Source: Candidatus Nomurabacteria bacterium
GTDB lineage: Bacteria; Patescibacteriota; Minisyncoccia; Phycocordibacterales; UBA9973
Direction: 5' to 3'
NCBI GenBank assembly: GCA_016186435.1
Contig: JACPLQ010000008.1
Location: forward strand, 1-48,823
DNA length: 48,823 nucleotides
In this document: positions 20,285-48,759 of the stretch, piece by piece
Numbering within the stretch: the stretch's first letter is position 1
Layout: each line of letters starts with the position of its first letter
Notes under the pieces: model-generated
The model's database searches: none
Told to the model about the DNA's origin: nothing
Seen by the model: only the letters and a program-made list of their open reading frames with translations
Program-made: the position numbers and the translations under genes

Positions 20285-21790
20285 TTATTTTAGTAAACCT
20301 TTTAATAATTTTAAAACTATTTTGGGGTTTGCGCTGCCTTTTGTTTCTTTTATAACTTTACCCACGAGCGACATTACCGCATTTTCTTTTCCGGATTTAT
20401 ATGAAGATATTATTTCAGGGTTTTCCGAAATGACTTTTATAGCAATAGTTTTTATCGCATCTTCATCGCTACTACTTTGAAGCAAGTTTTTCTCTGTTGC
20501 GATTTTGAGTGGTGATTCGTCTCCCAACACAATTATTGCCAGTATGTCCTTTGCTCCTCGAGAAGAAATTTTATTTTCAGTTATAAGGTTTACTAGCTCT
20601 GCAAAATTCTCCCCCGTCGGGTGTTGGACACCCGCATTAGACTTTTTCAGTCCTATGTAGTCTGTCGTTATGTAGTTTGACGCAGTTTTTATCTTCTCTT
20701 TATCATTAAGAATTTTCGCAACATCTTCAAACCACGCGCCGAGAGTCATATCGTTAATATATACTTCAATATCTTCATCTTTAATGCCAAAATCTTTTTG
20801 ATATCTCGCTCGCTTCTGCGCCGGCAATTCCGGTAATTCTTTTTTCATTTTTTCCAAATCCCAGCCAGAGGCTGGTCCGCCTTTGGCGGAAAATGTCCCA
20901 TGTAAAAACATTTTTGGCAGGTCAGGATCCGGAAAATATCTATAGTCTGCGCTTCCTTCTTTCTTTCTCTGTGAATACGTCTGTTGTTTATTTTCGTCCC
21001 AACCTCTGGTTTCCTGCACTATTTCACCTCCCTTTCCGGCTTCCATGAGCTCTGTCATTCTGCCTACTTCATACTTAATTGCCCGCTCCACGCTTCTAAA
21101 AGAGTTTAAGTTTTTTACTTCTACTTTTGTGCCGAGAATTTTCGGGTCTGCAGATATAGAAATATTGGCCTCTACTCTCATTTCTCCTTTTTCCATGTTC
21201 GCTTCCGATACATCCAAATACCAAAGTATAAGCTGAAGCTCTTTTGCAAACTTTATCGCTTTTTTCGCCGTTTCTTCAGTAGTTTCGAAAGTGTGCGGTT
21301 CGGTCACGAGCTCCATAAGCGGTACTCCGGCACGATTAAAATCAATTAAGGAATATCCGTTGTCGCGGGTGTTGGACACCTGAATCTCTTGGTGTCCAAC
21401 ACCCGCGAAGTGCTTGTTATTTGCTGTGTCTTCTTCCAAGTGTATGCGGGTGACATCCATATCTGCCAATCGCCCGCCCGAAACTATAGGATATTTATAC
21501 TGGGATATTTGGTAGCCCTTGGGAATATCGGGATAAAAATAATTCTTGCGGTCAAATTCGGTAAAATCTGCAATAATGCCATCTATCGCCAGACCTACTT
21601 TGATGACATTTTCTATGGCCTTTTTATTGGGCACGGGTAAAGCCCCGGGGTGCGCCATGCACACAGGGCAGATATTGACATTTGGTTTTTCCTCGTCCGG
21701 ATCATTCCTGCAAGAGCAAAACATCTTTGTCTGCGTCTTCAGTTCTGCATGTATTTCGAGCCCAATTGTAGGATAATATTTATTCGGCAT
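20285..21790 (-). CDS. gatB: Asp/Glu-tRNA amidotransferase subunit B
   Basis: IGLEIH, FDRKNYFYPD, HLEED, VEVKNLNS and YRYFPDPDL motifs. Confidence 0.98.
   Translation of the reverse strand: MPNKYYPTIGLEIHAELKTQTKMFCSCRNDPDEEKPNVNICPVCMAHPGALPVPNKKAIENVIKVGLAIDGIIADFTEFDRKNYFYPDIPKGYQISQYKYPIVSGGRLADMDVTRIHLEEDTANNKHFAGVGHQEIQVSNTRDNGYSLIDFNRAGVPLMELVTEPHTFETTEETAKKAIKFAKELQLILWYLDVSEANMEKGEMRVEANISISADPKILGTKVEVKNLNSFRSVERAIKYEVGRMTELMEAGKGGEIVQETRGWDENKQQTYSQRKKEGSADYRYFPDPDLPKMFLHGTFSAKGGPASGWDLEKMKKELPELPAQKRARYQKDFGIKDEDIEVYINDMTLGAWFEDVAKILNDKEKIKTASNYITTDYIGLKKSNAGVQHPTGENFAELVNLITENKISSRGAKDILAIIVLGDESPLKIATEKNLLQSSSDEDAIKTIAIKVISENPEIISSYKSGKENAVMSLVGKVIKETKGSANPKIVLKLLKGLLK
20861..20890. 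repeat. 30-bp twin-hairpin element in-frame in gatB
   Basis: CCAGCC-AGA-GGCTGG + TCCGCC-TTT-GGCGGA, encoding SAKGGPASGW. Confidence 0.9.
21363..21408. repeat. Inverted GGTGT-TGG-ACACC doublet in-frame in gatB
   Basis: Perfect 18-bp arms with a 10-nt spacer. Single copies at 20618-20634 and 43507-43531. Confidence 0.9.
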
Positions 21791-21846
21791 AACTTAAAAT
21801 ATAATAACATATTTAAAAAAAAAAATTTTAAACTTAAACAATATTG

Positions 21847-21878
21847 TTACCATTTTTAACATATGTAAAAGATAGTAA
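21847..21878. repeat. 32-bp imperfect palindrome downstream of the PaaX-like gene
   Basis: TTACCATTTTTAACAT|ATGTAAAAGATAGTAA; sister copy at 22484-22515. Confidence 0.75.
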
Positions 21879-21883
21879 GAAAG

Positions 21884-22453
21884 CTAATTTTTTGATTTAA
21901 AGGTTCCATTTTTTGTTACTTCTAAAATTTCCACGTAATCAAGAATTCCTAATCTATTTAAATCACTGACAAATCTCTCGGGTAACAATACTTTACCAAT
22001 CCATACGCTCTTGTGAATTAAATCAAAACCGAGTATTTGCAAAATATCTCTCAAAATATTTCTTTCTCTATTAAAGGCTATTGGTATGTCATAACTAATG
22101 ATCACAGCACTCTTACCTACTTTCTTTTTATAATCTTCTTTGTTTGATAAAGGAGAATTTTTAAATTTTTTCAATTTCTTTTTGCCCTTTTCGCTTAAGT
22201 AAATTTGTTTTGATTCATTTTCTGAAATTAGTCCGCTATTTTTAAGCTTTGCTAAATAATTTTTAAATTTTAATATCTTTTCTTTTTCTAACTGTTTACT
22301 TATTCTTTTGTCTTGTAATTTTGAAAATTCATAATTTATTTTTCCACCTGTTGCACCGTATCCAGCTTTAAGAAAAGCACTAGTAAAATCAAATTGATCA
22401 AGTACCGCATCATCTAAAGAATTTAAAATCTTATATAATATTTCTCCTTTCAT
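21884..22453 (-). CDS. PaaX-like wHTH + Cas2-like C-terminal domain protein
   Basis: wHTH wing (LSEKG) followed by ISYDIP...R..LR..L..LGF..IHKSVW. Confidence 0.8.
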   Translation of the reverse strand: MKGEILYKILNSLDDAVLDQFDFTSAFLKAGYGATGGKINYEFSKLQDKRISKQLEKEKILKFKNYLAKLKNSGLISENESKQIYLSEKGKKKLKKFKNSPLSNKEDYKKKVGKSAVIISYDIPIAFNRERNILRDILQILGFDLIHKSVWIGKVLLPERFVSDLNRLGILDYVEILEVTKNGTFKSKN

Positions 22454-22483
22454 TTTATATATAATACAACATTGTCAAAGATA

Positions 22484-22515
22484 TGACTACTTTAGACATA
22501 TGTCAAAGATAGTAA
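22484..22515. repeat. 32-bp imperfect palindrome upstream of the PaaX-like gene
   Basis: TGACTACTTTAGACAT|ATGTCAAAGATAGTAA. Confidence 0.75.
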
Positions 22516-22562
22516 TGGGGAAAATTCTGTACTATTGAAGTATGTTTTAAGTCTTATTATTG

Positions 22563-23564
22563 CTATTTTAAGATTTTTGCCAATTCATCATTAAACTTCT
22601 TTACCATTTTATCATCATACAGCGAAAGCGCAAAAACTTTTTTTGATATTTTTTTGAATTCTGCCAATTTTTTATCTATTGTTTTCTGATCTGTCGTATC
22701 GCTTTTGGTGAGGATTATAATCTCTTCTTTTTCATCTAAACCGTTTCCGTATTTTTTTAATTCCCTCCGCACCTGCTTATAGCGAGCCAGCATTGAGGAT
22801 TTCCCTGCCCCGTACTGAGACGAAATCTCTAGTTCGGGGTCAAAAGAGACAAGATGCGCCAGCATCTTTGTGCGCTTGATATGGCGCAGGAATTTAATAC
22901 CAAGGCCTTTCCCTTCTGACGCTCCTTCTATTATTCCCGGAATATCAGCGATGATGTATCCATAAAAATCTCCCAAGTTCGGACCAAGAGTGGTAAAAGC
23001 ATAGTCGCCCACTTTCGCGTCCGCGTTTGTAAGCGTATTTAAAAGCGAGCTCTTCCCGGCGTTCGGAAGCCCAATAAGCCCGATATCGGCAAAAAGCTCC
23101 AGCTCTATCCTGAAAGTCCCTTTCTCGCCCTCTTGTCCCTCGCGAGATTCTTTCGGCGTAGTATTCGTAGAGCTTTTAAAGTGTTCGTTGCCGAAGCCTC
23201 CGTATCCACCTTTTAAAATTAAAAATTTCTCTCCTTCTTCGGATAGCTGCCAAGTCTCATCTGTACTTAAGTTTGTAATTACAGAGCCTATCGGCAATTC
23301 CAATAAAAAATCTTCTCCGTTCTTGCCGTGCAGACTTTTATTTCCGCCGTCTTCGCCTCTGCCAGCAGAAAATTCTTTTTTTGCTTTATATTTTGAAAGT
23401 ATATGAATGTCTCGCACAGCTTTCACGAAAAAATCTCCGCCTCGTCCGCCGTCTCCGCCTGAAGGACCGCCTTTTGGCACAAATTTCTCCTGCCTCCAGC
23501 GCACAACGCCATTCCCGCCTCGTCCAGCAGCGGCTTCTATTTTCATTTCATCTATAAAAGGCAT
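22563..23564 (-). CDS. obgE: GTPase Obg/CgtA
   Basis: Gly-rich Obg fold, GLPNAGKSS, YAFTT, DIPG and TKSD motifs. Confidence 0.97.
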   Translation of the reverse strand: MPFIDEMKIEAAAGRGGNGVVRWRQEKFVPKGGPSGGDGGRGGDFFVKAVRDIHILSKYKAKKEFSAGRGEDGGNKSLHGKNGEDFLLELPIGSVITNLSTDETWQLSEEGEKFLILKGGYGGFGNEHFKSSTNTTPKESREGQEGEKGTFRIELELFADIGLIGLPNAGKSSLLNTLTNADAKVGDYAFTTLGPNLGDFYGYIIADIPGIIEGASEGKGLGIKFLRHIKRTKMLAHLVSFDPELEISSQYGAGKSSMLARYKQVRRELKKYGNGLDEKEEIIILTKSDTTDQKTIDKKLAEFKKISKKVFALSLYDDKMVKKFNDELAKILK

Positions 23565-23566
23565 CC

Positions 23567-24484
23567 CTATGATTCTACAGCAATTTGCGCCAATTTAATA
23601 GCCCCAACTTTCGACTTAGCTCCTGCCAGCCACAAGCCGCGATGACAAAATAGGGCGTCAGCGACACCAGAAACATTTACAAAATCTTCATCTGAAAGTC
23701 CAGCCCAGAGCTTTGGCATATTTTTTCTGTTATTAAAACTTTTCGGGTCTTGTCGTATAGCTTTTACACCCCATGTACCGCTGGTTTTTCTGGGATAAAC
23801 TGCAAAAAGCGGCTCCGGAAAAGTCCAAAGCATATACTCAAAGGGATAATTTTTTTCTAAAACAATAATTCGCTTATCCTCGGTTTTATTGTAAACGGAG
23901 ATTACCGCTTCCTCAGCTTCCAGTGTATCTTGCGCCTGAACAATTTCCCGCAATAAGATATTTTTAGCCAGTTCTACGCATTTTAAAAACATGTCATCAA
24001 TATTTACGTCTTCCTCTTTCCACGTGGGCGACATCGCAAAAAAAACATTTTGCAGATAATATGGAGCAACATCGTATTTATTTTCCACTAAATCAAAACC
24101 ATTGTCCCATGCGTCTATTGGGGCGCAGAGACGCTTTTCAATAATTTCTGCCGCTTTTTTAGAACCGGCAATTTTTTCTCCGAATTTTTTCCAAACAAGT
24201 CCCATGGAAGAATATTCTATATTGCGCGGGCTTTTGCCCGCGCCTCCCACCTGATGATGATCAAAAAGATTTTTACTCTCATCGTATATTCCGCCTATGT
24301 CGTACACAAAGTCGCCGGTTTTCCAGACTTTCGGATCTCGGCTCCTGATTATCTCAAAAGAAATATTTTCTCTCTCAAGCATTATAGACAGAGCGGCAGA
24401 TGCAAAAATATCGTCGGCGTGAAAAGCGCCGTCGTGGGTAATCAACTTTTTACTTAGTATTTTTCGTGAATTAGTTTCTGTCAT
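23567..24484 (-). CDS. MYG1-family DHH exonuclease/hydrolase
   Basis: THDGAFHADD, DIGG, FDHHQ and FCH motifs. Start set at MTETN. Confidence 0.9.
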   Translation of the reverse strand: MTETNSRKILSKKLITHDGAFHADDIFASAALSIMLERENISFEIIRSRDPKVWKTGDFVYDIGGIYDESKNLFDHHQVGGAGKSPRNIEYSSMGLVWKKFGEKIAGSKKAAEIIEKRLCAPIDAWDNGFDLVENKYDVAPYYLQNVFFAMSPTWKEEDVNIDDMFLKCVELAKNILLREIVQAQDTLEAEEAVISVYNKTEDKRIIVLEKNYPFEYMLWTFPEPLFAVYPRKTSGTWGVKAIRQDPKSFNNRKNMPKLWAGLSDEDFVNVSGVADALFCHRGLWLAGAKSKVGAIKLAQIAVES

Positions 24485-25076
24485 TGTAATATTCTTCAAA
24501 TAATTCATAAATCCAGCTGACCAATTTATCAAACAGGATAAATATGAGCACGAGAACCATGACTACCATGGAAAATCTCCATATCTCCTTGCTTACCCTT
24601 AGCGCAGTATAGCTGAAAACATACCCGAGAGAAAGGAGAAATGGCGCCCAGATCAGAGTAGCCAACGCTTCTGCTTTAAAATATTTTTTGTAGTTTACCT
24701 TTTCATACCCGCAGAATATGATGACTACATTGTTTGCTCCAATTATAAATTTTGAAATAAAAATAGACCAAAATGGCTTTGCCTTAAATTTCGGCAGAAG
24801 TCCGTAAACCCGTTTTTGAATATAGCTGAAAAATTTGTGATGATTGAATTTTCTGAACAAGAATTGCCCGAGCTTGTATCCGAAAAAAGTCTTGGCGATT
24901 CCGCCCATTAGTATGAACACGAGCGCGAGAAAAATATTCAGCGCGCCCAAGTGAGCGAGCACTCCGGCAAATATTATTACAAATTCGCCTTCAAAAATAA
25001 TTCCAAGGAAAATAATCGCATATACCAGAACTTGATTATGCTCCACTAAGCGAGTAATAAGATTTACTGTATGCAT
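24471..25076 (-). CDS. DedA/VTT membrane protein
   Basis: EGE...AG.L, GY.LG and SKFI.G motifs with multiple TM helices. Confidence 0.85.
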   Translation of the reverse strand: MHTVNLITRLVEHNQVLVYAIIFLGIIFEGEFVIIFAGVLAHLGALNIFLALVFILMGGIAKTFFGYKLGQFLFRKFNHHKFFSYIQKRVYGLLPKFKAKPFWSIFISKFIIGANNVVIIFCGYEKVNYKKYFKAEALATLIWAPFLLSLGYVFSYTALRVSKEIWRFSMVVMVLVLIFILFDKLVSWIYELFEEYYNDRN

Positions 25077-25080
25077 TTCT

Positions 25081-25365
25081 TTATTGTAAATAAGTTTCCA
25101 AAATCTTAATCTCGGCTTCTTCTTTATCAACTAAGTCCTGCCGGTTCCCCTGCTTAAACAATTCTATCGCTTTTTTACCTTTTTTTACCATGCGTTTAAT
25201 TACAGTAAGCGCGTCTTCATCTGATAGTATTTCATTCGGCTTTCTGTTTTTGCTCACAAGCTCATTGGTAAAAGCAGAAACCATTCCCCGATACGTCTCC
25301 AGCTTCACGCTATCTTTGGCCATCATGGCTTCTTTTATTCCATTTTTTATTTGTTCATGCAACAT
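25081..25365 (-). CDS. YqeY/GatB-domain protein (short form)
   Basis: KEAMMAKD, R.DL..KE.AE..ILE.YL; ends after the N-terminal lobe. Confidence 0.85.
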   Translation of the reverse strand: MLHEQIKNGIKEAMMAKDSVKLETYRGMVSAFTNELVSKNRKPNEILSDEDALTVIKRMVKKGKKAIELFKQGNRQDLVDKEEAEIKILETYLQ

Positions 25366-25469
25366 ACGAAAAAATTATACGAACCCAACGAAAACCTACG
25401 AAAATTTTCGTAGACTTTCGCGACTTTCGCATGATTTTAGTATATCACAATTTATGTTAGAATAGCACT

Positions 25470-26186
25470 ATGGTAAAACTCATATTTTTTGATACGGAGA
25501 CCACGGGAAATACAGAAAAAGATTTTTTGGTTCAGATTGCCTATAAGACAGACAATGAAAGTTTTGCGGAGCTTTACCAGCCACCGATTAAAATCCCTCC
25601 TGAAGCCTCCGCCGTGCACCATATCACCAATAAAATGGTGGCTGATAAGCCGACTTTCAAAGAGAGCACCGACCAGCCGATAATCAAAAAACTTTTTGAA
25701 GATAAGAATTCTATTGTTGTCGCCCACAACGCGCCTTTTGATCTTATGATTATCGCCAAAGAAGGCATCGTTCCTAAAAAATTTATCTGCACGCTCCGAG
25801 TGGCCCGCGAGCTGGACCCCGAAAGCAAAATAGAGCGCTACAATCTGCAGTATCTGCGTTATCTTTTAGATATAGAAATAGAAGCTATGGCTCACGATGC
25901 GCTCGGCGACGTTTTAGTATTAGAAAAACTTTTTGAGCGGCTAAAAAATAAAATAATGTCAGAAGAAAACGTAAATGAAGAAAGGGCTATAGCAAAAATG
26001 GTAGAAATTTCTTCGCACCCGTCGCTTTTCAGAACTATGAACTTTGGCAAGCATAACGGCAAGAAGATAGAAGAAGTGCTGGCCTGCGACCGCGGATATC
26101 TGGAATGGCTCTTGGCGCAAAAACTGGAAAGCGACCAGATAGAAGATGATTGGATTTATACTTTACAGCACCATTTGAAAAAATAA
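25470..26186 (+). CDS. DEDDh 3'-5' exonuclease (ExoX-like) with C-terminal FGKH domain
   Basis: DTETTG, AHNAPFD, HDALGD and FGKHNG...YLEWL motifs. Confidence 0.9.
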   Translation: MVKLIFFDTETTGNTEKDFLVQIAYKTDNESFAELYQPPIKIPPEASAVHHITNKMVADKPTFKESTDQPIIKKLFEDKNSIVVAHNAPFDLMIIAKEGIVPKKFICTLRVARELDPESKIERYNLQYLRYLLDIEIEAMAHDALGDVLVLEKLFERLKNKIMSEENVNEERAIAKMVEISSHPSLFRTMNFGKHNGKKIEEVLACDRGYLEWLLAQKLESDQIEDDWIYTLQHHLKK

Positions 26187-26270
26187 AGTTTTAAGATATA
26201 GTACATCTCGAAATAAGTAAAAAAGAAGGGTCTCCTTCGGGCGGCTCTTCATTTATGCTAGAATATAAAT

Positions 26271-27251
26271 ATGGAAAACGCTTTTTGGATAATTATTGGG
26301 CTAGTTGTCGGCGGGATTTTTGCCTATTTTATTTTTAATAAAAAAAAAGAAGAAAAAAAGGAAGACAACTCTCCCCTGCTTATGTTGCAGCAGCAGATGG
26401 CAGAGCTTACCCGCGAGGTCAATAGGAGCCTTATTGATGTGGCGCGCGAGCAAACCAAGACCAACGAAGCCACGCGGCAGTTCATTACCATAGCGGACAA
26501 GCTGGGTGACCTGGAGAAAACTTTGAAACACCAGAAACAGCGCGGCAACTGGGGCGAAGCTTCTTTGGAATTAATTCTTTCCAATACACTGGCTCCTGGA
26601 CAATTTAAAATGCAGTATGAATTTAAAAATAAAGAAGTAGTGGACGCTGTTATAATAACCAAGGAAGGAATTATTCCTATAGATGCAAAATTCTCACTTG
26701 ATAATTATGACCGCGTGGTGCATGCCATAGATGAGCGCCAGCGCGAAGAGCTTGAAAAAGAATTTAAAAGCGACCTAAAAAAGCGCATTGACGAAACCGC
26801 GAAGTATGTCCGCCCCGAAGAAGGCACGCTCCCCTTCGCATTTATGTACATTCCAGCAGAAGCTATTTATTATGACCTTCTTGTAAACGAAGTCGGCTCT
26901 ATAAAAGTAAATACCCGCAATTTAATAGACTACGCATACAATGATAAAAAAGTTATAGTGATATCTCCGACGACATTTATGGCATATCTGCAGTCTGTAC
27001 TGTACGGCTTCAAAGCATTTAAAATTGAGGAGTCTGCAAAAGAAATAATAAAAAAAGTGGAGGATCTGGGCAAGCATTTGAAATCTTACGACGAATACCA
27101 CACCAAACTCGGTAACGCCCTCGGCACCGTGGTCAACCACTACAACGCTTCCAATAAAGAGCTGAAAAAAATTGATAAAGACGTCTTGCGCATCTCTGGC
27201 GCTTCGCCGGAAATTGCGTTATTGGAAGTGGAGAAACCAAAAGCGGAATAA
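26271..27251 (+). CDS. rmuC: DNA recombination protein RmuC
   Basis: N-terminal TM, RGNWGE, PIDAKF, FAFMYIPAE and SPTT motifs. Confidence 0.93.
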   Translation: MENAFWIIIGLVVGGIFAYFIFNKKKEEKKEDNSPLLMLQQQMAELTREVNRSLIDVAREQTKTNEATRQFITIADKLGDLEKTLKHQKQRGNWGEASLELILSNTLAPGQFKMQYEFKNKEVVDAVIITKEGIIPIDAKFSLDNYDRVVHAIDERQREELEKEFKSDLKKRIDETAKYVRPEEGTLPFAFMYIPAEAIYYDLLVNEVGSIKVNTRNLIDYAYNDKKVIVISPTTFMAYLQSVLYGFKAFKIEESAKEIIKKVEDLGKHLKSYDEYHTKLGNALGTVVNHYNASNKELKKIDKDVLRISGASPEIALLEVEKPKAE

Positions 27252-27254
27252 GAA

Positions 27255-27278
27255 AGGCGGTCGCTTGCGCGACCGCCT
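27255..27278. terminator. Hairpin terminator between convergent genes
   Basis: AGGCGGTCGC-TTGC-GCGACCGCCT, followed by TTCTT on the minus strand. Confidence 0.7.
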
Positions 27279-27335
27279 GTGAGAGTGATCAGGACTCTCG
27301 GCCCGAGCAGAGAGATATTGCTCTGCCGCAATTAT

Positions 27336-28037: not shown

Positions 28038-28053
28038 TTGGCCCTCCTAAACT

Positions 28054-33453: not shown

Positions 33454-34361
33454 GTTTTTTGAATAATTCTTAATTTTGCGCTTCTTGCTCTGGGATTATT
33501 CTTTATTTCTTCAGTGCTTGGTGTAATTGGTTTCTTTGTAATAATTTTTGCCTCTCTATTTCCTTGTCCGCCAGAGGCGGATCCGCCTTTGGCGGAATAA
33601 AATCTTTTTACTATCCTGTCTTCTAGGCTATGAAAACTTATTACTGCCATTCGTCCCCCTGGATTCAGTGAATCAAATCCTTTACGCAAACCTTCCTGCA
33701 AACTCCCCAATTCATCATTGACTGCTATGCGTATCGCCTGAAAAGTCCGTGTGGCGCAGTGCATTTTCTGTCTCTTATATGCTCTGCCTACAGCCCTTTC
33801 TATAATTTTCACTAAATCAAAAGTGGTTTTAATCTCTGCCTTATCTCTTGCTTCCGTAATCGCTTTAGCTATCCTTCGGCTAAATTTTTCCTCGCCATAG
33901 CCATAAATAATATCGGCTAAATTTTTTTCTTCCCAAGTATTTACTATTTCTTTTGCAGTCAGGTACTCTTCGCTTGGGTTACTTTTCATAGTCATTAAAA
34001 GCGGCTCGTCTTTTTGAAAAGAAAATCCTCGTCCGGAATTTTCTAACTGATCTGAACTCAAGCCCAAATCAAAAATAATCGCATCTGCCTGCAAATCTCC
34101 AAGTTCGCGAAAGTTTTGATTCAGGAAGGTCACATTGCAACCTGACATTTTTTCTTTCCCCCGCTCTATTGCACTTCTGTCTTGGTCAATGGCGATAATT
34201 TTTATATCCGGATAGTTTTTACAAACCTGAAGAGCATGTCCGCCGCCGCCGAAAGTCGCATCTATAACAACTTTTTTTGAATCCCCGCTTTGCGCCGAGG
34301 CAGGTAAATTTAGGCCGTCTATTGTTTCTTTTAAAAGAACTGTCTTGTGTACGCTTTCCAT
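33450..34361 (-). CDS. rsmH: 16S rRNA m4C1402 methyltransferase RsmH
   Basis: DATFGGGGH, DLGLSS, RTFQAIRIAVNDEL and NPRARSAKLR motifs. Confidence 0.97.
   Translation of the reverse strand: MESVHKTVLLKETIDGLNLPASAQSGDSKKVVIDATFGGGGHALQVCKNYPDIKIIAIDQDRSAIERGKEKMSGCNVTFLNQNFRELGDLQADAIIFDLGLSSDQLENSGRGFSFQKDEPLLMTMKSNPSEEYLTAKEIVNTWEEKNLADIIYGYGEEKFSRRIAKAITEARDKAEIKTTFDLVKIIERAVGRAYKRQKMHCATRTFQAIRIAVNDELGSLQEGLRKGFDSLNPGGRMAVISFHSLEDRIVKRFYSAKGGSASGGQGNREAKIITKKPITPSTEEIKNNPRARSAKLRIIQKT
33567..33596. repeat. 30-bp twin-hairpin element in-frame in rsmH
   Basis: TCCGCC-AGA-GGCGGA + TCCGCC-TTT-GGCGGA, encoding SAKGGSASGG. Confidence 0.9.
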
Positions 34362-38380: not shown

Positions 38381-38383
38381 CGA

Positions 38384-40765: not shown

Positions 40766-40838
40766 TACCTGTCCCGTACTAAATTTTTGATTACGTGATA
40801 TAATTGCTGATATTAAAGTTTAAAATTTTAGTACTGGG
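40766..40838 (+). repeat. 73-bp element, copy 3 (before ftsA)
   Basis: First 30 bp identical to copy 2; ends AAAATTTTAGTACTGGG followed by ATG; internal TGA-TATAAT. Confidence 0.85.
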
Positions 40839-42005
40839 ATGATAAAAAATATTTCGGTGGGAATAGACGTGGGGTCGTCCGTGACGCGAGTCGTGGTCGG
40901 AGAATTTCTAAAAGGAGAAAAAAATCCTAAGATTATCGGCGCGGGCGAATCAGCGACTTTGGGCCTTCGCCACGGATATGTTGTAAATTCTTCTCTTGCA
41001 TCAGCGTCAATAAAAAAAGCGGTAGAATCAGCGGAACAAACTTCCGGCGTAAAAATACGGCGCGCGTTTGTATCACTTTCAGGCATTACTCTCCGCGGAG
41101 AAATTAGTTCAGGCTCTGCAATTATTTCAAAAGCTGACGGCGAAGTAACTGCATTGGATATAAACAAGGCTCTCGCAGACTGCGAAGACAATCTTTCCGT
41201 AGGCAACAAAAAAATCATACATACGTACCCGATATCTTTCCGGCTGGACGGCAAAGAAGTGCTGGGGCGACTGGAAGGCATGCGCGGCACAAAACTTGAA
41301 GCCAAAGCTCTTTTTGTCACCTATTCTGTAGTTCATTTAGAGGATTTACTCGGAGCAATAGCTGAAGCCGGAGTGGAAACCATAGGTGTCATAGCTTCGC
41401 CTGTAGCCATAAGCGAGATTGTGCTAGGAGAAAAACAAAAAATAGTGGGTGTGGCGCTCGTAGACATAGGGGCAGAGACTACATCTCTTTCAGTTTTTGA
41501 AAATGGAGCCATGGTTTCTATCCATACTTTTTCTATCGGCTCTACAGACATCACAAATGATATCGCTTTAGGATTTAAAATAACTTTAAACGAAGCTGAG
41601 GAATTTAAATTTGGAAATATAGGCGAAGGATTCTCTAAGAAAAAACTGGATGAAATCATAGAAGCGCGATTGTGCGACATTTTTGAATCAATAGAAAATC
41701 ACCTGAAGAAAATAAAAAGGTCTGAGCTCTTGCCTGCAGGCATTGTCTTTGTCGGCGGAGGTGCAGGCACTCCAAACCTTATAGAATTATCTAAAGACGT
41801 TTTAAGGCTTCCGGCGAGTCTGGGCTCTACAGATATGTTTGGCAATGTGAAAACAAAGCTTCGGGATTCCACTTGGTTTACAGCTCTGGGGCTTTTATCG
41901 GCAGGAAGAGAGAGTAAGGGCGGATATTCCGATGGATCTTTCAAGGGTTTACTGCGGGATATCAAAAATACCTTTAAATCAAGCCTTAAACAGCTGATGC
42001 CCTAA
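40839..42005 (+). CDS. ftsA: Cell division protein FtsA
   Basis: GIDVGSS, VDIGAETT, ITNDIA, IIEARL and VGGG motifs, plus a C-terminal amphipathic helix. Confidence 0.95.
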   Translation: MIKNISVGIDVGSSVTRVVVGEFLKGEKNPKIIGAGESATLGLRHGYVVNSSLASASIKKAVESAEQTSGVKIRRAFVSLSGITLRGEISSGSAIISKADGEVTALDINKALADCEDNLSVGNKKIIHTYPISFRLDGKEVLGRLEGMRGTKLEAKALFVTYSVVHLEDLLGAIAEAGVETIGVIASPVAISEIVLGEKQKIVGVALVDIGAETTSLSVFENGAMVSIHTFSIGSTDITNDIALGFKITLNEAEEFKFGNIGEGFSKKKLDEIIEARLCDIFESIENHLKKIKRSELLPAGIVFVGGGAGTPNLIELSKDVLRLPASLGSTDMFGNVKTKLRDSTWFTALGLLSAGRESKGGYSDGSFKGLLRDIKNTFKSSLKQLMP

Positions 42006-42007
42006 CC

Positions 42008-42032
42008 CACTTGGAGGTTCTTCCTCCAAGTG
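42008..42032. repeat. REP hairpin upstream of RAYT
   Basis: CACTTGGAGG-TTCTT-CCTCCAAGTG; the 19-bp core is repeated exactly at 42233-42251. Confidence 0.9.
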
Positions 42033-42045
42033 TTATAATGAAAAT

Positions 42046-42345
42046 ATGTCAAGTAGAAAAATCGCTTTTGTTCCCGGAGAATATTATCACGTTTATAACA
42101 GGGGCGTGGATAAAAGAAATATATTTTCTGATAAGTCGGATATTGGAAGATTTCTGCAAAGCATGGAAGAATTTAATACGAAAAATCCTATCGGTAGTTT
42201 ATATGAACACAGCTTCGTTAAGAAAAAGAAATTTGGAGGTTCTTCCTCCAAATTGATAAAATTTATCGCTTTTTGCTTAAATCCAAATCATTTTCATTTC
42301 TTAATAACTCCCCTTGTGGAAAAAGGAATAGAGAAATTTATGCAG
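42046..42345 (+). pseudogene. REP-associated tyrosine (Y1/HUH) transposase, truncated by IS30
   Basis: GEYYHVYNRG....IF and FCLNPNHFH (HUH). Resemblance stops at KFMQ, and the catalytic-Tyr C-terminal half is absent from the window. Confidence 0.85.
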
Positions 42346-43391
42346 GTGAATTCTCTTTTGAATTGCAATGAATTAGAATTGAAATATGAAAGCAAAAAAA
42401 GTTTTCGCATTTTTCCCAAAGCGAGCGGAATGAAATATATATCCTGCGGAGAAAAGGATACTCGTATGCCGATATCGGCAGAGTGTTGTTAAGAGACTGC
42501 GGGGCGGTCTGGCGCGAGTTAAAGAGAAACAAGACCGGGGGTTCATATGATCCCCGAAAAGCCGGGCACAAATCATATGTGAGGCGGCACAATGCCAAGT
42601 ATCAAGGCAAAAAAATAGTTGAAGATACGGCGCTTCGGGTCTTTGTTGAAAATTCTCTTTTGGGCGGCCAGTCGCCGGAAGATATATCAGGAAGACTAAA
42701 ATACAAATATGAAAAAGGTCTGCTGTATGTTTCCAAAGACAGCATCTACCGGTATATTAAGTCTCCATATGGCAGACAAATCGAGGTGAAGCTCCTGAAG
42801 AAAAAGAAGCGCGGAGGCAAGCGGAAAAAACTGGGCACTCTGGACGGCAGGACTTTCATCGACCAAAGACCCAAGCGCATCAATGCCAGAATGAGAATCG
42901 GTCATGCGGAGTTTGACTTCATTGTTTCGGGAAAAACCGGAAAAGGGATATTGCTCGTGGTGATCGACAGGAAACTTCGGACTTCATTTCTGGAGCCGAT
43001 ATACAAAGTGAGCATTTCTGCCGTGCATCTGGCGGCGAGGAAAATCAAAAAGAGATACCCGGAATGGAAGACCGGCACTACAGACAACGATCTTTTGTTT
43101 GCCAGGCACAAGGAGCTAGGGAAAGAATTGGGTATTAAAATATATTTCTGCCACCCGTATCATTCCTGGGAAAAAGGCACGGTGGAGAACACCAACGGAG
43201 AAATTAGGAAGGACATTTCAAAAGGCAGCGACATATCAAAATACTCAAGGTCATTTTTCAGAAAGCTGGAAGAGAAACTGAACTGCAGGTTCATGAAATG
43301 CCTGAACTACCGCACTCCTTTTGAAACTCTAGACATCGCCCGAAAACAAAAAAATCTCCGGGAAAGGAGAAAGGGTGGGCATTGCAATTGA
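42346..43391 (+). mobile_element. IS30-family element with incomplete right end
   Basis: AATTGCAATG (42361-42370) and CATTGCAATT (43380-43389) form an inverted repeat around the transposase. Outer boundaries are approximate. Confidence 0.75.
42386..43391 (+). CDS. IS30-family DDE transposase, frameshifted near the start
   Basis: RELKRN, SPEDIS, SIYRYI, GHAEFD, TDND and HPYHSWEKGTVENTNG motifs. The HTH frame is open from 42390, but the ATG at 42386 is out of frame. Confidence 0.85.
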
Positions 43392-43559
43392 GGCCGTCGG
43401 GCGGGGGGGGATTTAGATGTTTTCATATACCATTATTGTAGCATTTTGCAAGGTGGTTTTCTACGGTGCAGGACTGTCCTTACTAGTATAATGCTTTCGC
43501 CGGGTGTCGTCGGGTGTTGGACACCCGACGAAGCTTATTTGTAATGGGGATAACTTTGC

Positions 43560-43588
43560 TTGTTTAGGTTATCGTTAGGTATTATAAT
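43560..43588 (+). promoter_or_regulatory. Promoter/operator of the lexA-MTase gene
   Basis: TTGTTT-17 nt-TATAAT ending 6 nt before the ATG; TTAGGT direct repeat at 43564 and 43575. Confidence 0.6.
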
Positions 43589-43594
43589 CAATAA

Positions 43595-45484
43595 ATGCCC
43601 ATTGCATTAAATAATCAACTTACAAAAAAACAAGCGAGTGTTCTTAATTATGTAAAAAAAATTCAAGAAAAAAAGAACTATTCCCCTGCTTTAAGTGAGA
43701 TAGCTGATCATTTTGAAGTTTCAATACCTACAATTCACCAGCATGTAGATTATTTAGAAAGAAAAGGTTACTTAGTAAAAGAAAAAGGGGTAAAACATTC
43801 TATACAAACAACAGAAAATAAAATTAATGATTTAATTCAGATACCTTTGCTGGGAACAATTGCTGCGGGGCAACCAATCGAAGCGATTGAAATTCCTGAC
43901 GAAACTATTTCTATAACCAAAAGCGATATTGGACAACAAGGAAAACATTATGCTTTGCGTGTTCAAGGAAACAGTATGATGGATGAAGGTATTTTTGATG
44001 GCGACATAGTGATTATCCGTAAACAAGAATACGCAGAAAACGGACAAACAGTTGTCGCAATAATTGACGACAATGAAGCAACACTTAAAAAACTTTATTG
44101 GGAAAAAGATAAATTTAGGTTGCAACCTGCAAATCCTAGCCTATTTCCTATATTCAGAGACGAAGTAGAGGTTAGAGGTATTGTAGTTAAAATAATTCGC
44201 AATCTTGAATCACAACTGGACCAAGAACAATCAAAAAAAGAAAAGTACGTTCGAAAAATTGATTATTCGTGGGATTACAAAGGAGAAAAAACAAAGTCAT
44301 ATACACACGGAATACACACATATCCTGCTATGTTTATTCCACAAGTAGGACGAAGGCTATTGGAAACTTATAGTAAAAAAGGCGATACTGTATGTGATAT
44401 TTTTTGTGGCTCAGGCACGGCTTTGGTTGAAAGTAAGTTAATAGAAAGAAATGCTTATGGTATTGATCTGAATCCGCTAGCAATTTTCCTTGCTCACGCA
44501 AAAACAACTCCAATAAATCCTCAAAAATTAACAAAAGCCTATCTGGCTTTGCTTGATAGAGTAGAAAAAATAAAAGATAAAGATATAAAAAGACCTGAAT
44601 TTAATAACATTGATTTTTGGTTTAAGGATAAAGTAATAGTTAAGCTCGCTAAACTAAAAAAAGCTATAAAAGAAATATCAGATAAGAAAGTCCAGAATTT
44701 TTTAATGGTTGCCTTTAGTGAAACAGTTAGATATTCTTCAAACACAAAAACAGGAGAATTTAAACTTGTTCGGGTCAAAGGAGACAAGCTTCAACAACAT
44801 GATCCAAACGTAATTGGCATTTTTCGCAAGCACGCTGAAAAAAATATTGCGGGAATGACTGAATTCTATAAGGATGCAACAAAGAATTCGTGGACAAAAA
44901 TTATCTACGGAGATTCATCTAAAAACAACGGCATAAATGAAAAATCTATTGATTGTATAATTACCTCTCCTCCTTATGGAGACAGCAGGACCACAGTTGC
45001 ATACGGACAATTTTCTCGCCTTTCAGCACAGTGGATTGATATCTTTAATGATCCAAATGATGCATCAGGCGTAGATAATGCATTACTAGGTGGCAAAGCT
45101 ACCAAAAATTTGGTTCATTTGTTACCATCAGATTATTTGAGGGAGGCTTTAGAGAAAATTTCTAAACAGGATGAAGCCAGAGCTAGAGATGTTTTGAGTT
45201 TTTATATAGGATTAAATGACTGCTTAAAACAAGCTCATAAAATATTAAAATCGAAAAAGTATTTTTGCCTTGTAATCGGCAATAGATTGGTTAAACAAGT
45301 CAGAATTCCTACAGATTTTATAATAGCGGAATTAGGCGAAAAAATTGGTTTTACTTGTGAAGATATTATTGTCAGGAATATTCCGGGAAAAAGAATGCCG
45401 ATAAAAAACTCACCGACAAATATTGTTGGAGCTTTGGAAAAAACAATGAATAAGGAAAGTATAGTAATTTTAAGAAAAAACTAA
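43595..45484 (+). CDS. LexA-like repressor fused to an N4-C-type DNA methyltransferase
   Basis: LT.KQ..L wHTH, IAAGQP cleavage site, GNSM (Ser) and TLKK (Lys); then HTYPAMF, DIFCGSGT and TSPPY. One uninterrupted 629-aa frame. Confidence 0.9.
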   Translation: MPIALNNQLTKKQASVLNYVKKIQEKKNYSPALSEIADHFEVSIPTIHQHVDYLERKGYLVKEKGVKHSIQTTENKINDLIQIPLLGTIAAGQPIEAIEIPDETISITKSDIGQQGKHYALRVQGNSMMDEGIFDGDIVIIRKQEYAENGQTVVAIIDDNEATLKKLYWEKDKFRLQPANPSLFPIFRDEVEVRGIVVKIIRNLESQLDQEQSKKEKYVRKIDYSWDYKGEKTKSYTHGIHTYPAMFIPQVGRRLLETYSKKGDTVCDIFCGSGTALVESKLIERNAYGIDLNPLAIFLAHAKTTPINPQKLTKAYLALLDRVEKIKDKDIKRPEFNNIDFWFKDKVIVKLAKLKKAIKEISDKKVQNFLMVAFSETVRYSSNTKTGEFKLVRVKGDKLQQHDPNVIGIFRKHAEKNIAGMTEFYKDATKNSWTKIIYGDSSKNNGINEKSIDCIITSPPYGDSRTTVAYGQFSRLSAQWIDIFNDPNDASGVDNALLGGKATKNLVHLLPSDYLREALEKISKQDEARARDVLSFYIGLNDCLKQAHKILKSKKYFCLVIGNRLVKQVRIPTDFIIAELGEKIGFTCEDIIVRNIPGKRMPIKNSPTNIVGALEKTMNKESIVILRKN

Positions 45485-46191
45485 AGAATTCGCCTGTGTA
45501 TTTTAAATAAGTGTGGAAAAGTTTTTTCACTAAGTCGAGTAAGTCGAAAGGCTGAGCCGTGGTCGTGTGGTTTACCGATATTTTTACCACTACGGTAAAC
45601 ACCAAGCCTGATGTCATATTTTGATAGCGCTAGAAATTGCTTCGGGTCAATATTCTTTAAGAGCCATGCTTCTATGTAATGAAAATATTCATACCCTTTT
45701 TCTTTTTTTGAATTAGCAAAAACAAGTATTAACCCGTTGCCAATTTTTTCAGCTGCTTTTTGTCGTAAAAATTCTAGTTTGTAATATCCAAGCGTTGTTC
45801 TGTTTTGGAGTATTAACAATTTGCCCTGATTTTCATCAATCTTACCACAAAAACCTCGGCCATTTTTCTTTCCGTTAGTAATAGTTTGGTGTAAAATTAA
45901 ATGTTTTGGGAATTCTGGATCAGGATAACCAAATCTTTTTAAAATTTCGGCATTGGTAATTCTCTCAGGCTTCTTAGTAAAAAGAGTCATCATAGAAGAA
46001 GTTCCCATTCTTTGTGACTTTAGTTCCATTACCCCAAAATCCGGCAATGCAATATTATTTTCTTTAATTTTCAAATAGTCCTCAAGGGTTTTGCCAATAC
46101 CAGTATTATGCTTTCTATTTGATTTTACCCAACCTAATTCTTTGAGCGCTTTTAATTTCTTCTTAATTTTTCCTAATGTCCATTTTTGCAT
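45481..46191 (-). CDS. MvaI/BcnI-family restriction endonuclease
   Basis: TGIGKTLE.....ENN...PD....ELKS, TLFT and HDHGSAFR motifs. Confidence 0.88.
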   Translation of the reverse strand: MQKWTLGKIKKKLKALKELGWVKSNRKHNTGIGKTLEDYLKIKENNIALPDFGVMELKSQRMGTSSMMTLFTKKPERITNAEILKRFGYPDPEFPKHLILHQTITNGKKNGRGFCGKIDENQGKLLILQNRTTLGYYKLEFLRQKAAEKIGNGLILVFANSKKEKGYEYFHYIEAWLLKNIDPKQFLALSKYDIRLGVYRSGKNIGKPHDHGSAFRLTRLSEKTFPHLFKIHRRIL

Positions 46192-46225
46192 AGTGCAGCC
46201 ATTCTACTCCAACCCACCCCCAAAC

Positions 46226-46444
46226 TCAATCCACCGCCAAAAGCTTACTTGGACTGCGGTGTCCATTAACAATACGAACTTTATTTATCGGCACTTCAAA
46301 ATGTTCCGCGATAAGTTCTAGGACCCGCCCATTTGCCATATTTCTCTCCGCTTTCTCACGCACTGAAATTTCGAAGTGATCTTCGTTTTTCTTTTTAACA
46401 AATTCTTTTCTCGCTCCGGCTATTACTTTCACATGTATGTACAT
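46226..46444 (-). CDS. DUF167 (YggU-like) protein
   Basis: V.V..GA, AN....L.A..F.V and G..S..K pattern. Confidence 0.88.
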   Translation of the reverse strand: MYIHVKVIAGARKEFVKKKNEDHFEISVREKAERNMANGRVLELIAEHFEVPINKVRIVNGHRSPSKLLAVD

Positions 46445-46461
46445 AATTTATTTAAAATATT

Positions 46462-48051
46462 TTACTTTTCAATCAATCCAAGCTTCACCAGCCTAGAACG
46501 GATCCCGCCGGTCTGCCGGCCGGTTAATGCTGAAATATTTTTTACGGATCTTCCGCTCTTCCACATTGCTATTATCTCCCCTTCCTCTTCTGCAGTCCAC
46601 TTTCGGTATGCATTGGCGTGCTTCTCGCGGATTTTTTCTAATCGGCCAATAGACTTTTGAATATTTGAACTTTTTTCATCCCTCCATTTGCCTCCCATCG
46701 CGATAACAAAATTTTTCTGCATCTTTTCATGTTCTTCGGAAGCTATATTGCTAAACACTTCGCGGGCTTTTTCGGATCCAGCGCGAAAGTCCGTATCTTT
46801 TTCTAAAATTCGCGGGTGAACCTGAAGCGCCCGAGCATTTATGCCGAGAAGGTATAGGCCCGACAAGCGCCTGACTCGCGAGAGCGCCACATACCCTTGC
46901 CCGTATTCAAACACGTCGGAAAGGTCCATCACGGCGGCATCCATGCTCATACCCTGACTCTTGTGCACAGTTATTGCCCAGGCGAGGCGAAGCGGAACTT
47001 GGGTGATCTTGGCTTTTATTTTTCCATTTTCCTCCACGCTCCAATCCATCGGCTCTACCGTTATCATCTTACCGCTTTTGGTTTTTATGATCGGATGATT
47101 GGTAAAAGAATCAAAACCTTCCACCGTGCCCAGCGTGCCGTTTACAAACCTTTCTTTCGGATTATTTTTGGTGCACATGACTACAGCGCCTTTTTTCAAA
47201 CGCAGAACCTCCGGTGAAAGGCACCCTTTTTTGAGCGCAAAGACGAGCGATTCTTTACCGGTGGAAGTCATCTCATATTCCTTTAAATCCGCTTCTATTT
47301 TATTTAGCATGCCGCCGTTCACGTCGTCCACATTTATATTGCGCGAAAAAAGCTTGGTAATGCATTCAATATCCTCTCCGAATTTATCCGAAGAAGTCTG
47401 GCGGGAATTTATACGCTCCATGTGCAGTTCTTCCACCTCACCCTTTCGGATAGCTGAAAGCACGGATAGATATTCTGCATCGTCCTGCCGGTGCTGTTCG
47501 GTGAGGTAGCACGTAACCGGAGCAAGCCTGCGCCATGCGTCGCTCTCAAAAGCGAAATATGTTTTTACTTCATTTATTAATTTATTTTGCTCGCCAGCAT
47601 TTACGCCGTACTTTTCTACCGGCGGAAGCTGAAAGAAATCTCCGACAAGCACGATCTGCATACCGCCGAAGGGTTCCGGATTTTGTTTTATTTCCCTACA
47701 TACTGCGTCTATCATCGCAAAAGCTCCGGTGCGGAGCATGGATACTTCGTCTATGATAAGTACGCGGGTTTTTAATATTCTTTTGTGGATGTATTCATTA
47801 CTGGCGATGCGATCCAGATCATAATCTGTAAGATTTTCTTTTATGCCTATACCGCTCCATGAATGTATGGTCATGCCTCCGATATGAGTGGCGGCAATGC
47901 CTGTGGATGCGGTAATTGCCGGCTCTATATCCCGCTCGCGCAAATATGAGACGAATTTATTTATGGTAAAAGTTTTTCCGGATCCCGGCTCGCCAGTCAA
48001 GAAAACATTTGCGCCTGTTTTCAATATGGAAAGAGCTTCATCTTGAGTCAT
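46462..48051 (-). CDS. Pif1-like SF1B helicase with C-terminal HTH
   Basis: GEPGSGKT, DEVSM, GDFFQLPP, PLRLAWAITVHKSQG and YVALSR motifs. Confidence 0.93.
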   Translation of the reverse strand: MTQDEALSILKTGANVFLTGEPGSGKTFTINKFVSYLRERDIEPAITASTGIAATHIGGMTIHSWSGIGIKENLTDYDLDRIASNEYIHKRILKTRVLIIDEVSMLRTGAFAMIDAVCREIKQNPEPFGGMQIVLVGDFFQLPPVEKYGVNAGEQNKLINEVKTYFAFESDAWRRLAPVTCYLTEQHRQDDAEYLSVLSAIRKGEVEELHMERINSRQTSSDKFGEDIECITKLFSRNINVDDVNGGMLNKIEADLKEYEMTSTGKESLVFALKKGCLSPEVLRLKKGAVVMCTKNNPKERFVNGTLGTVEGFDSFTNHPIIKTKSGKMITVEPMDWSVEENGKIKAKITQVPLRLAWAITVHKSQGMSMDAAVMDLSDVFEYGQGYVALSRVRRLSGLYLLGINARALQVHPRILEKDTDFRAGSEKAREVFSNIASEEHEKMQKNFVIAMGGKWRDEKSSNIQKSIGRLEKIREKHANAYRKWTAEEEGEIIAMWKSGRSVKNISALTGRQTGGIRSRLVKLGLIEK

Positions 48052-48078
48052 GAAATTTATTCTAGCACATTTTGAATT

Positions 48079-48534
48079 TTACTTGGAAAAATTTCCGAGC
48101 TTTAGCTCCAAACATTGCGTCAGAGCCGGCGTTTCTGTCCATCCGCATTTGCCGTTTGCCTGCCGTCCGCATTCACCGCTCTTGTAACAAGAATATTCCG
48201 GCTGGTATTCACAGGTAGATACAGCGCCCGGCTCATCTGAACAAATCTGGGAACTGCATCCGCCTATATAACATCCGCCTGTAGCAGTCGCTGTAGATTG
48301 CCCTTCATCCCCGCTCACTATTTTTTCTACATATACATTGCCTTCCGGGCTGGTGCACTGGCGAGGATAACTCTCCATTACCGGATAGCCCGCTTTGACA
48401 CAGTCTTCAAAATCAGCGATAAACGTCGCTGCCTGTTCCAGCGTTTTTTGTTTCTGATATACGAAATATCCCAGCAAAGCTAAAACTGCGAGCCCTATTA
48501 TGATCCATAAAGTCATCTTGTTTTTTTCTTGCAT
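48079..48534 (-). CDS. Membrane-anchored Cys-rich extracellular protein
   Basis: N-terminal TM, FEDC..AGYPVMESYPRQC and a GGCSSQIC...CGW Cys cluster. Confidence 0.8.
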   Translation of the reverse strand: MQEKNKMTLWIIIGLAVLALLGYFVYQKQKTLEQAATFIADFEDCVKAGYPVMESYPRQCTSPEGNVYVEKIVSGDEGQSTATATGGCYIGGCSSQICSDEPGAVSTCEYQPEYSCYKSGECGRQANGKCGWTETPALTQCLELKLGNFSK

Positions 48535-48729
48535 ATGATTTTGAAATTAAAATACTAATGCTCACATTATAGTATAAGACGAACAATATAAATATTTGTT
48601 ACGGATACATCCTGCTAAAATGCGTAATAAATCTGTCACCTACTCGTCTTAATCCTTAGTAGTAGAGTAGTAGAGGCTATACTGCGGCGTGTTTCTTTGT
48701 CGAGAGATACATTTATCAATTATTTTATT

Positions 48730-48759
48730 TCCGCCAGAGGCGGATCAGCCTATGGCTGA
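48730..48759. repeat. 30-bp twin-hairpin element, intergenic copy
   Basis: TCCGCC-AGA-GGCGGA + TCAGCC-TAT-GGCTGA. Confidence 0.9.

Follow-up and report, generated by a model that had tools for sequence, protein, structure and literature searches.

The stretch of DNA analysed here (48,823 nt of contig JACPLQ010000008.1 from a Candidatus Nomurabacteria bacterium, assembly GCA_016186435.1; hereafter the window) carries several copies of a 30-nt repeat made of two abutting hairpins, which is found between genes and, in frame, within housekeeping genes. This element, the twin hairpin or simply the twin, is real, apparently undescribed, and most likely selfish. Our preferred reading, to which we assign a probability of roughly 0.6, is that the twin belongs to selfish DNA: a non-autonomous insertion element of very small size, of the general kind represented by repetitive extragenic palindromes (REPs) and Rickettsia palindromic elements (RPEs). 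It enters as an exact 30-nt block, without target duplication, after a T-rich codon and before a purine- or A-rich one, and it would move as a folded single strand, with the enzyme supplied in trans or with host replication and repair doing the work. Selection would then remove the copies that break proteins, and those that remain would mostly form flexible Ser-Ala-x-Gly-Gly-Ser-Ala-Ser-Gly-Gly loops at tolerated surface sites of housekeeping proteins.

If this reading is true, the twin would be among the smallest mobile DNA elements known, able to enter essential genes, in bacteria whose genomes are among the smallest, and leave them intact, and conserved proteins would gain loop insertions from it. 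It could also serve as a marker of cross-phylum DNA exchange in groundwater communities, and the spread of hairpin mini-elements would become a directly testable question. There would be a practical side as well: unitigs break at the element, so that in metagenomes it would confound assembly as well as gene calling and alignment.

We label the genome G000, and the window is its contig C2; the assembly amounts to 706 kb in 29 contigs, with 41% G+C and an estimated completeness of 98.75%; other G-numbers denote compared genomes. Copies in G000 were located by a scan for GCC-NNN-GGC hairpins and by a covariance model, R1, made from 16 copies of the twin. R1 was applied with a cut-off of E<=1e-4 to congeners and to the order, and with a cut-off of E<=1e-8 to an even sample of 150 genomes from the phylum. 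A separate pattern scan across genomes (the genome_contigs set, one genome per species) held GCC and GGC fixed and left three pairs per hairpin free; it returned at least 125 matches in at least 124 loci, and all figures taken from it cover the matches listed. Copies were called coding when they were internal to a long open reading frame (ORF) by the criteria used, the ORF call for intergenic copies being a crude one. The name gatB rests on Pfam and rsmH on membership of the MraW family, prfA and priA are best NCBIfam matches, and the priA ORF is open at its 5' end.

Three exact 30-nt twins lie in the window, in gatB, in rsmH and in an intergenic position (Table 1), as compared to 0.00 expected from 100 dinucleotide-preserving shuffles searched with a degenerate pattern for the 30-nt block. 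Single 15-nt units number eight, again with 0.00 in the shuffles. These three twins had been described in an initial annotation of the window, and they stand exactly as described; other parts of that account had to be revised. A supposed fourth twin in priA is instead a 57-nt composite with a nested 27-nt hairpin. The single hairpin assigned to prfA is present, and can now be recognized as part of a 21-nt insertion relative to three of five congeners. Finally, a hairpin placed at 18571 does not belong to the family at all, but is part of a different repeat of about 54 nt that has six copies in the genome.

Few other genomic copies would have spoken against the existence of such a family, yet G000 as a whole contains 16 full twins and two composites, plus weaker single or decayed units, and many other genomes contain the element too. 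With 18 copies in 706 kb, G000 has one roughly every 40 kb, and 8 of the 18 lie inside long ORFs. Seven are inside long genes in phase 0, on the strand that reads SA(K/Q)GG(S/P)ASG(G/W); the genes are a UDG-family gene, gatB, rsmH, a comM-like gene, ileS, priA and a DHO_dh-family gene. One copy supplies the last codons of a GATase_5-domain gene, three are at gene ends in another phase, and seven are intergenic. One more partial copy, on another contig, adjoins a run of N.

Architecture and pairing of the twin hairpin

Each unit of the element is a 15-nt hairpin with a 6-bp GC-rich stem and a 3-nt loop, and two such units directly abut to make the 30-nt twin. The pairing of the stems is conserved well beyond G000: both hairpins are fully paired in 113 of the 125 matches listed from other genomes, though six pairs were free in the scan pattern. 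By our own arithmetic, free positions that vary independently and with equal frequencies would give full pairing in about 1 in 64 matches. The covariation proposed from the few copies in the window is therefore upheld in a larger sample. Stem position 3 is occupied by C-G 182 times, A-T 64 times, A-G four times and C-T never, while position 1 is T-A in 200 cases, C-G in 38, C-A in nine and T-G in three. Only two of the matches look like chance occurrences, both in DNA of 72-77% G+C. Within G000 itself, 92% of the cells in an alignment of the copies are paired, 7 of 15 pairs show changes on both sides, and 0 of 500 shuffles score as high; this test is circular, because the copies were chosen by their pairing, and the scan with free pairs is relied on instead.

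The two hairpins of a twin need not be alike. Two different stem types are joined in 65 of the 113 perfectly paired twins. Twins of two identical units have an alternative fold as one long hairpin, whereas the mixed twins fold only as two hairpins, so that local hairpins are what is kept. A long single hairpin, available to identical-unit twins only, was accordingly ruled out as the general fold. The loops follow a rule of their own: in 104 of the 113 twins the first ends in A and the second starts with T (NNA then TNN), so that the twin amounts to an inverted pair of one unit. Aligned copies are typically preceded by TTT and followed by AAA, and with these flanks the twin becomes a 36-bp near-palindrome. 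Since it is nearly its own reverse complement, any "orientation" of the element is carried by the loops alone.

Head-to-head ligation at a central GATC was considered and rejected; it needs a second loop that is the exact complement of the first, which is usually false. A generic count of adjacent 6-bp hairpin pairs was likewise abandoned, as the family is not resolved by the total, which is 188 in the genome and 146-158 in the five Markov controls, though the GC-rich class of such pairs is the only one to stand out from the controls.

It had been proposed that selection acts on the nucleic-acid structure of the element. Conservation of that structure is strongly supported by the pairing, but selection as its cause is not separated from the alternatives: conserved pairing may also be compatible with palindrome-regenerating copying or repair, or with recent re-insertion.

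Empty sites and reading frames in host genes

Orthologues of the interrupted genes were taken from a 40-genome sample of the genus, with up to 30 loci per search, and aligned. The gatB site is empty in 28 of 30 orthologues, in which TTT is followed by GAT, and exactly 30 nt intervene in G000 and G022. A comparable picture emerges for the comM-like gene, where 26 of 30 orthologues are empty and an exact twin separates TTT from RAA in G000 and G009; at the same site G055 has 10 unrelated residues and G049 has four. The ileS twin is found in G000 only, between AAATTT and AAAGTT (26 orthologues are readable at the site), with three neighbouring codons missing, and the same loop holds other inserts in several congeners. 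In rsmH the twin is restricted to G000 and G056 and absent from 28 of 30 orthologues, with a net gain of seven codons because three adjacent codons are missing. The priA composite, whose insert follows GAATTT, is lacking in all five congeners compared. The 21-nt insert in prfA is absent from G009, G055 and G022, three of the five congeners compared, and is replaced by a variant reading PAKDGAS in G049 and by four other residues in G054.

Clean empty sites, which the initial annotation had suggested looking for in relatives, are thus on record for gatB, the comM-like gene, ileS and priA, and there is no target duplication at the gatB, comM and ileS sites. The 5' flank is TTT, TTC or TAT at all five twin or composite sites, a motif that is very common in this AT-rich genome, and the codon after the insert is purine- or A-rich. 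The three codons missing beside the element, relative to empty orthologues, are a feature of three of these five sites (rsmH, ileS and priA), giving a net gain of 7 (or 16) codons and not 10 (or 19).

The element is well suited to translation. Its length is a multiple of three, and it is free of stops in all six frames when built of TCCGCC, CCAGCC or CCCGCC units. From relatives 63 copies were fetched, 25 internal to long ORFs and 38 not. The coding copies comprise 15 in sense phase 0, five in antisense phase 0, four in sense phase 1 and one in antisense phase 2. All but one are exactly 30 nt long, and the exception is a 28-nt truncated model match, leaving no real length variants among them; outside genes, 16 of 38 copies are length variants (17, 29, 31-34, 36 or 50 nt). 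Among the loci listed from genome_contigs, 52 of 124 are probably coding, 38 of these in phase 0. All of this fits the earlier suggestion that a Gly/Ser reading lets the element survive inside ORFs. The claim that coding copies share frame and orientation holds as a bias only: phase 0 accounts for 20 of the 25 coding copies in relatives and the sense Ser-Ala-x-Gly-Gly reading for 15, while the other 10 are placed otherwise.

The TCAGCC...GGCTGA unit is instructive in this respect. None of the nine G000 twins that contain it is in a phase-0 coding position, because a phase-0 reading of the unit closes with TGA whichever strand is read. The same unit occurs in 0 of 34 phase-0 coding copies and 30 of 67 non-coding copies among the genome_contigs matches listed. 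The paired stem variants noted at the outset are therefore real, but the contrast between coding and intergenic copies is partly forced by this stop codon. Similarly, a target of TTT followed by AAA forbids one frame (NTT TAA, a stop), so site preference and selection on the peptide are not separated. Intergenic copies show no clear bias in their placement, with 17 sense and 12 antisense to co-directional neighbours, 10 between divergent genes and four between convergent ones.

Distribution among bacteria and possible routes of spread

The element is widespread but unevenly so. R1 finds it in 19 of 24 congeners, and among other families of the order 7 of 16 have it, with 0 to 34 matches on both strands, that is, up to about 17 loci. 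In the phylum sample, 42 of 150 genomes have a match. Record titles of the matches listed name many Patescibacteria lineages, together with metagenome-assembled genomes (MAGs) labelled Kiritimatiellae, Planctomycetes, Verrucomicrobia, Lentisphaerae, Omnitrophota, Ignavibacteria, Bacteroidota, Gamma- and Deltaproteobacteria, Bdellovibrionales, Binatia, Eubacteriales and Prosthecochloris, though MAG labels can be wrong. One isolate assembly, of Marivirga, carries the element at about 7 loci. Five genomes labelled as lying outside Patescibacteria have from 14 to at least 150 matches on both strands (roughly 7 to 75 loci), and viral contigs hold perfectly paired copies in 15 of 19 loci. In a Kiritimatiellae-labelled MAG (G057), most twins ride in a longer repeat, about 200 nt in length and present at least 10 times. 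The same genome has tandem 127-nt units (contig C3, 107000-113000; locus L395) that resemble a putative tRNA-Leu(UAA) gene, and in two of these the twin sits between CTT and AAAA of the putative tRNA-Leu-like anticodon loop.

Groundwater metagenomes add a view of a whole community. Four DNA runs of one study were searched as contigs only, and this assembly may derive from two of them. In all four, contig depth is about 10 elsewhere but reaches 91-193 and 527-862 in the two bins holding elements; contigs end at the element, and the loose ends are many and unlike each other. This jump in depth, along with so many unrelated ends, indicates that the element is carried by many organisms of the community. 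No RNA data with the element are listed among the sequencing runs.

The history of shared copies is not a simple one. A tree was built from GatB, RsmH and ComM of 33 genomes with the insert columns removed (LG+G4, SH-aLRT support only). It places G000 with G054, G055 and G049 (98), G022 in a second clade (96), and G009 with G056 in a third (93). The genomes that share the gatB, rsmH and comM inserts with G000 (G022, G056 and G009, respectively) are hence all in other clades, while its nearest relatives are without them. Decayed or variant inserts are found in sister species at the sites of G000 copies, for instance in the comM-like gene and prfA. The shared copies are identical to those of G000 at 29/30, 30/30 and 28/30 nt, and at 9/10, 10/10 and 9/10 third positions, as against 35/124, 28/62 and 81/200 four-fold silent sites of the host genes. 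Identity returns to background within about 45-60 nt of the element, and the filled gatB and rsmH alleles of these non-sister species have a few derived flanking codons in common. This history would fit repeated insertion at a few sites that tolerate it, but equally precise loss, transfer of short tracts, gene conversion from other copies, or selection for the sequence.

Several results weigh against a selfish mobile element. No mobilising gene was found in the analyses of the genome and the element loci. G000 has five Y1_Tnp (HUH) genes over the Pfam cut-off and one truncated Y1 in the window; the full proteins have 183-229 residues, an HUH-like NHFH motif and weak matches (40-50 bits, cut-off 80) to the NCBIfam model for RAYT, the transposase associated with REPs. 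Three of the five genes and the truncated copy have exact hairpins of their own, different from those of the twin, about 35 nt upstream, and at two of these four such hairpins recur 6-10 nt downstream. A TCCGCC-type hairpin is present at none of the six Y1 loci of G000 (about 3 kb each), and five relatives yield a single match among 19 Y1 loci, about 1.2 kb away. Metagenomic Y1 relatives tell much the same story: 0 of 80 have a TCCGCC hairpin at the cognate position and 3 of 80 have one elsewhere in the 400-nt flanks, the cognate hairpins being ..AAGG-loop-CCTT.. or ..CTAGG.. in type. The 124 loci listed are free of Y1 motifs within 300 nt. Of 20 Y1 loci in other phyla, two have a unit of the element in the vicinity: TCAGCC about 350 nt downstream in one case, and CCCGCC at a distance of about 1.3 kb in the other. 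Of the element-positive genomes in the phylum sample, 15 of 42 lack a Y1 match, several of them 99-100% complete. Clusters of copies in relatives have no candidate enzyme beside them, but lie in ordinary housekeeping operons (SMC, S16, KhpA, TrmD, L32, UvrB, Mur ligases). No variant lacking the 30 nt, as excision or an empty site would give, is listed in the groundwater contigs, which cannot show rare variants. Lastly, the shared copies are conserved far above silent sites where a neutral old insertion predicts otherwise, so that re-insertion, gene conversion or function is needed to account for them.

A bolder form of the insertion-element reading can be put forward tentatively, though it is rather unlikely. 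The twin might be a 30-bp "nano-transposon" without a dedicated transposase of its lineage, moved by host replication and repair or by an unrecognised phage-borne enzyme, and selected for translatability in six frames. Such translatability would explain how a single sequence came to occupy essential genes in a dozen phyla of bacteria.

REP families are generally restricted to particular lineages, and in enterobacteria REPs form hairpins that protect or punctuate polycistronic mRNAs. The twin shares with REPs, and with the paired REPs known as REPINs, the character of a short, dispersed, GC-rich palindrome, often in inverted pairs, in which pairing is kept and copy number varies among relatives. 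REPs and REPINs with their RAYT transposases make up the closest known system (Bertels and Rainey 2011, PMC3116915; Di Nocera et al. 2013, PMC3733652). The latter paper describes a GTAG or CGTC tetranucleotide tag at one end of REPs, reports REPs and REP dimers inside genes, where they encode 20-30 residues, and mentions RPEs; as intragenic REPs have already been described, the kind of element seen here is known. The twin differs from this system on several counts. The GTAG or CGTC tag is absent from aligned twins, which have a TTT...AAA flank instead; each unit is only 15 nt long, with nothing separating it from its partner; none of the transposase genes examined is flanked by TCCGCC hairpins in the arrangement called a REPtron; and the same twin sequence is found across many phyla. 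Nor is the twin mainly extragenic, being inside long frames not only in G000 (8/18) but also in relatives (25/63) and at the loci listed (52/124).

Like RPEs, the twin is palindromic, selfish DNA placed in frame within housekeeping genes, in a genome that is small and AT-rich; it is read as additional loops and is missing from orthologues at empty sites (here in gatB, rsmH, comM, ileS, priA and prfA). RPEs were reportedly introduced by Ogata et al. in 2000. They are about 100-150 bp long. The 30-bp twin occurs across phyla, while RPEs are confined to Rickettsia; the two are set apart here by length and not by sequence comparison. GC clusters of fungal mitochondria include double-hairpin elements and are also GC-rich mini-insertions in AT-rich genomes, sometimes in frame and with no known mover. 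They are organellar, however, differ in sequence, and in some cases make target duplications. Our literature search found no paper with the 15-mers, the peptide or the twin element; supplements were outside that search.

Foremost among the rival explanations, and still an unlikely one, is that the twin is a structured signal useful to the host, either an RNA hairpin that protects or punctuates mRNA or a protein-binding site in DNA, with the coding copies as by-products. The conservation of silent positions in shared copies is what one would expect of such a signal, as is the confinement of the identity peak to the element and about 45 nt around it. Besides the pairing, the stem sequence itself is kept even between distant groups (152 of 226 units in the matches listed are TCCGCC), and many intergenic copies are about 5-25 nt from neighbouring frames. 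On the other hand, the hairpin can hardly be under selection everywhere, given its decayed versions in sister species; congeners with similar gene content have anywhere from 0 to about 17 copies, and the sites are not conserved. About 40% of copies sit inside unrelated proteins. No run of T is present 3' of the hairpins in aligned copies, which have T before and A after on either strand, so the twin is not an intrinsic terminator. In addition, no Rfam family overlaps the element (six loci with intergenic copies, E<=1).

Somewhat less likely again is a REP/REPIN-type element moved by the Y1 transposases of the genome itself (RAYT-like and related to IS200/IS605) through single-strand "peel and paste". 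Miniature elements derived from IS200/IS605 (PATEs) are known (10.1101/2023.03.14.532601). The twin may recall these in its lack of target duplication, in its position by a short T-rich motif, albeit one very common in this genome, and in its hairpins at both ends, and precise excision of the IS200/IS605 type would explain the patchy sites and the presence of copies at odds with the tree. The five Y1 genes in 706 kb and their RAYT matches, weak as they are, point the same way, and Y1 genes are commoner in element-positive genomes (27/42 versus 39/108 of the others; odds ratio 3.2, Fisher p = 0.003, uncorrected for relatedness and genome size). Yet four of the six Y1 genes are flanked by other hairpins of their own, as detailed above, and the twin has equivalent hairpin units instead of distinct left and right ends, with no cognate TnpA found. 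Known minimal IS200/IS605 ends are also far larger than the 30-nt twin. Two congeners without element matches keep four Y1 genes each (G001 and G015), and a 0.7-Mb genome with about 13 element loci, like the 15 element-positive genomes already mentioned, has no Y1 gene.

There is only a slim chance that the element spread by DNA uptake and short-tract homologous recombination within the community, in the manner of DNA uptake sequences. The derived flanking codons common to filled alleles of non-sisters do suggest short-tract transfer, the element is extremely common in one community, and one carrier gene is comM-like. However, DNA uptake sequences occur at about 1 per kb, a density far above that of the twins (18 in 706 kb), and twins arise, not through point changes, but as clean 30-nt indels at new sites, which recombination alone cannot create; the element is also found in groups of quite different biology.

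It is very improbable that the twin is a Gly/Ser linker kept at the protein level with an incidental palindrome, or else an assembly or sequencing artefact: the dominance of phase 0 would suit a linker, but 72 of the 124 loci listed and 38 of the 63 copies in relatives are not internal to a long frame and already contradict it, other frames are used, silent positions are conserved and pairing is kept where the peptide changes, while an artefact is hard to reconcile with four independent runs with many flanks and an isolate assembly.

Composite copies and other repeats

The copies of the element in the window, and the other repeats and genes that bear on it, are collected in Table 1. In the priA composite, 13 bases from the start of a twin and 17 from its end enclose the 27-nt hairpin, which is thus nested in the first unit; the composite has a predicted fold of -20.9 kcal/mol. 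A second composite of the same build lies in the DHO_dh-family gene on contig C6 of G000.

Table 1. Hairpin elements, other repeats and a transposase-like ORF in the window
Feature	Position	Strand	Structure	Reading and remarks
Twin hairpin in gatB	20861-20890	-	CCAGCC.AGA.GGCTGG + TCCGCC.TTT.GGCGGA; 30 nt	SAKGGPASGW, phase 0; Pfam GatB_N/GatB_Yqey
Twin hairpin in rsmH	33567-33596	-	TCCGCC.AGA.GGCGGA + TCCGCC.TTT.GGCGGA; 30 nt	SAKGGSASGG, phase 0; MraW family
Twin hairpin, intergenic	48730-48759	-	TCCGCC.AGA.GGCGGA + TCAGCC.TAT.GGCTGA	second unit has TGA; no long open frame spans it
Composite in priA	656-712	+	57 nt	SAKGAAPAGFGGQGFASGG; R1 match 650-718, 29 bits
Single-hairpin insert in prfA	14794-14814	-	21 nt; coding strand CCCGCC.TCT.GGCGGG; hairpin 14800-14814	PASGGAS; RF-1 family
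Second palindromic repeat	20619-20633, 21367-21410, 43512-43526		GTC-GGGTGT-TGG-ACACCC-GAC	pair at 21367-21410 inside gatB, in frame, reads about GVGHQEIQVSNT
Third repeat	18551-18604	-	about 54 nt round CCAGCC-TTC-GGCTGG; hairpin 18572-18586	in FAD-oxidase gene, read through as ...LLQPSAGTFRLQNS...
Truncated Y1 (HUH) transposase-like ORF	42046-42492	+	hairpin about 35 nt upstream	148 aa

The second palindromic repeat is found in at least 17 places genome-wide, sometimes as inverted pairs, and the pair inside gatB accounts for six residues that are extra relative to most congeners and common to G055. The other five copies of the third repeat are on contigs C13 (two copies), C3, C26 and C14. 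Solo copies of Y1-type hairpins are also dispersed in G000, for example CTAGGC.AAG.GCCTAG, which occurs three times.

Two of the host genes have further peculiarities. IleS of G000 and G053 is without a stretch of about 190 residues that follows residue 523 in most congeners, and several congeners have a clearly different type of IleS, with 42-46% identity. The loop that receives the ileS insert (contig C29) precedes WTTTPWT. Unrelated inserts in this loop among congeners include one of about 66 nt reading TSP(D/E).F..., and a CCTGCC...GGCAGG hairpin is found among them. In rsmH of G022 and G042, some 60 additional nt, which R1 does not match, interrupt the protein match around residue 90 and suggest another in-frame insert.

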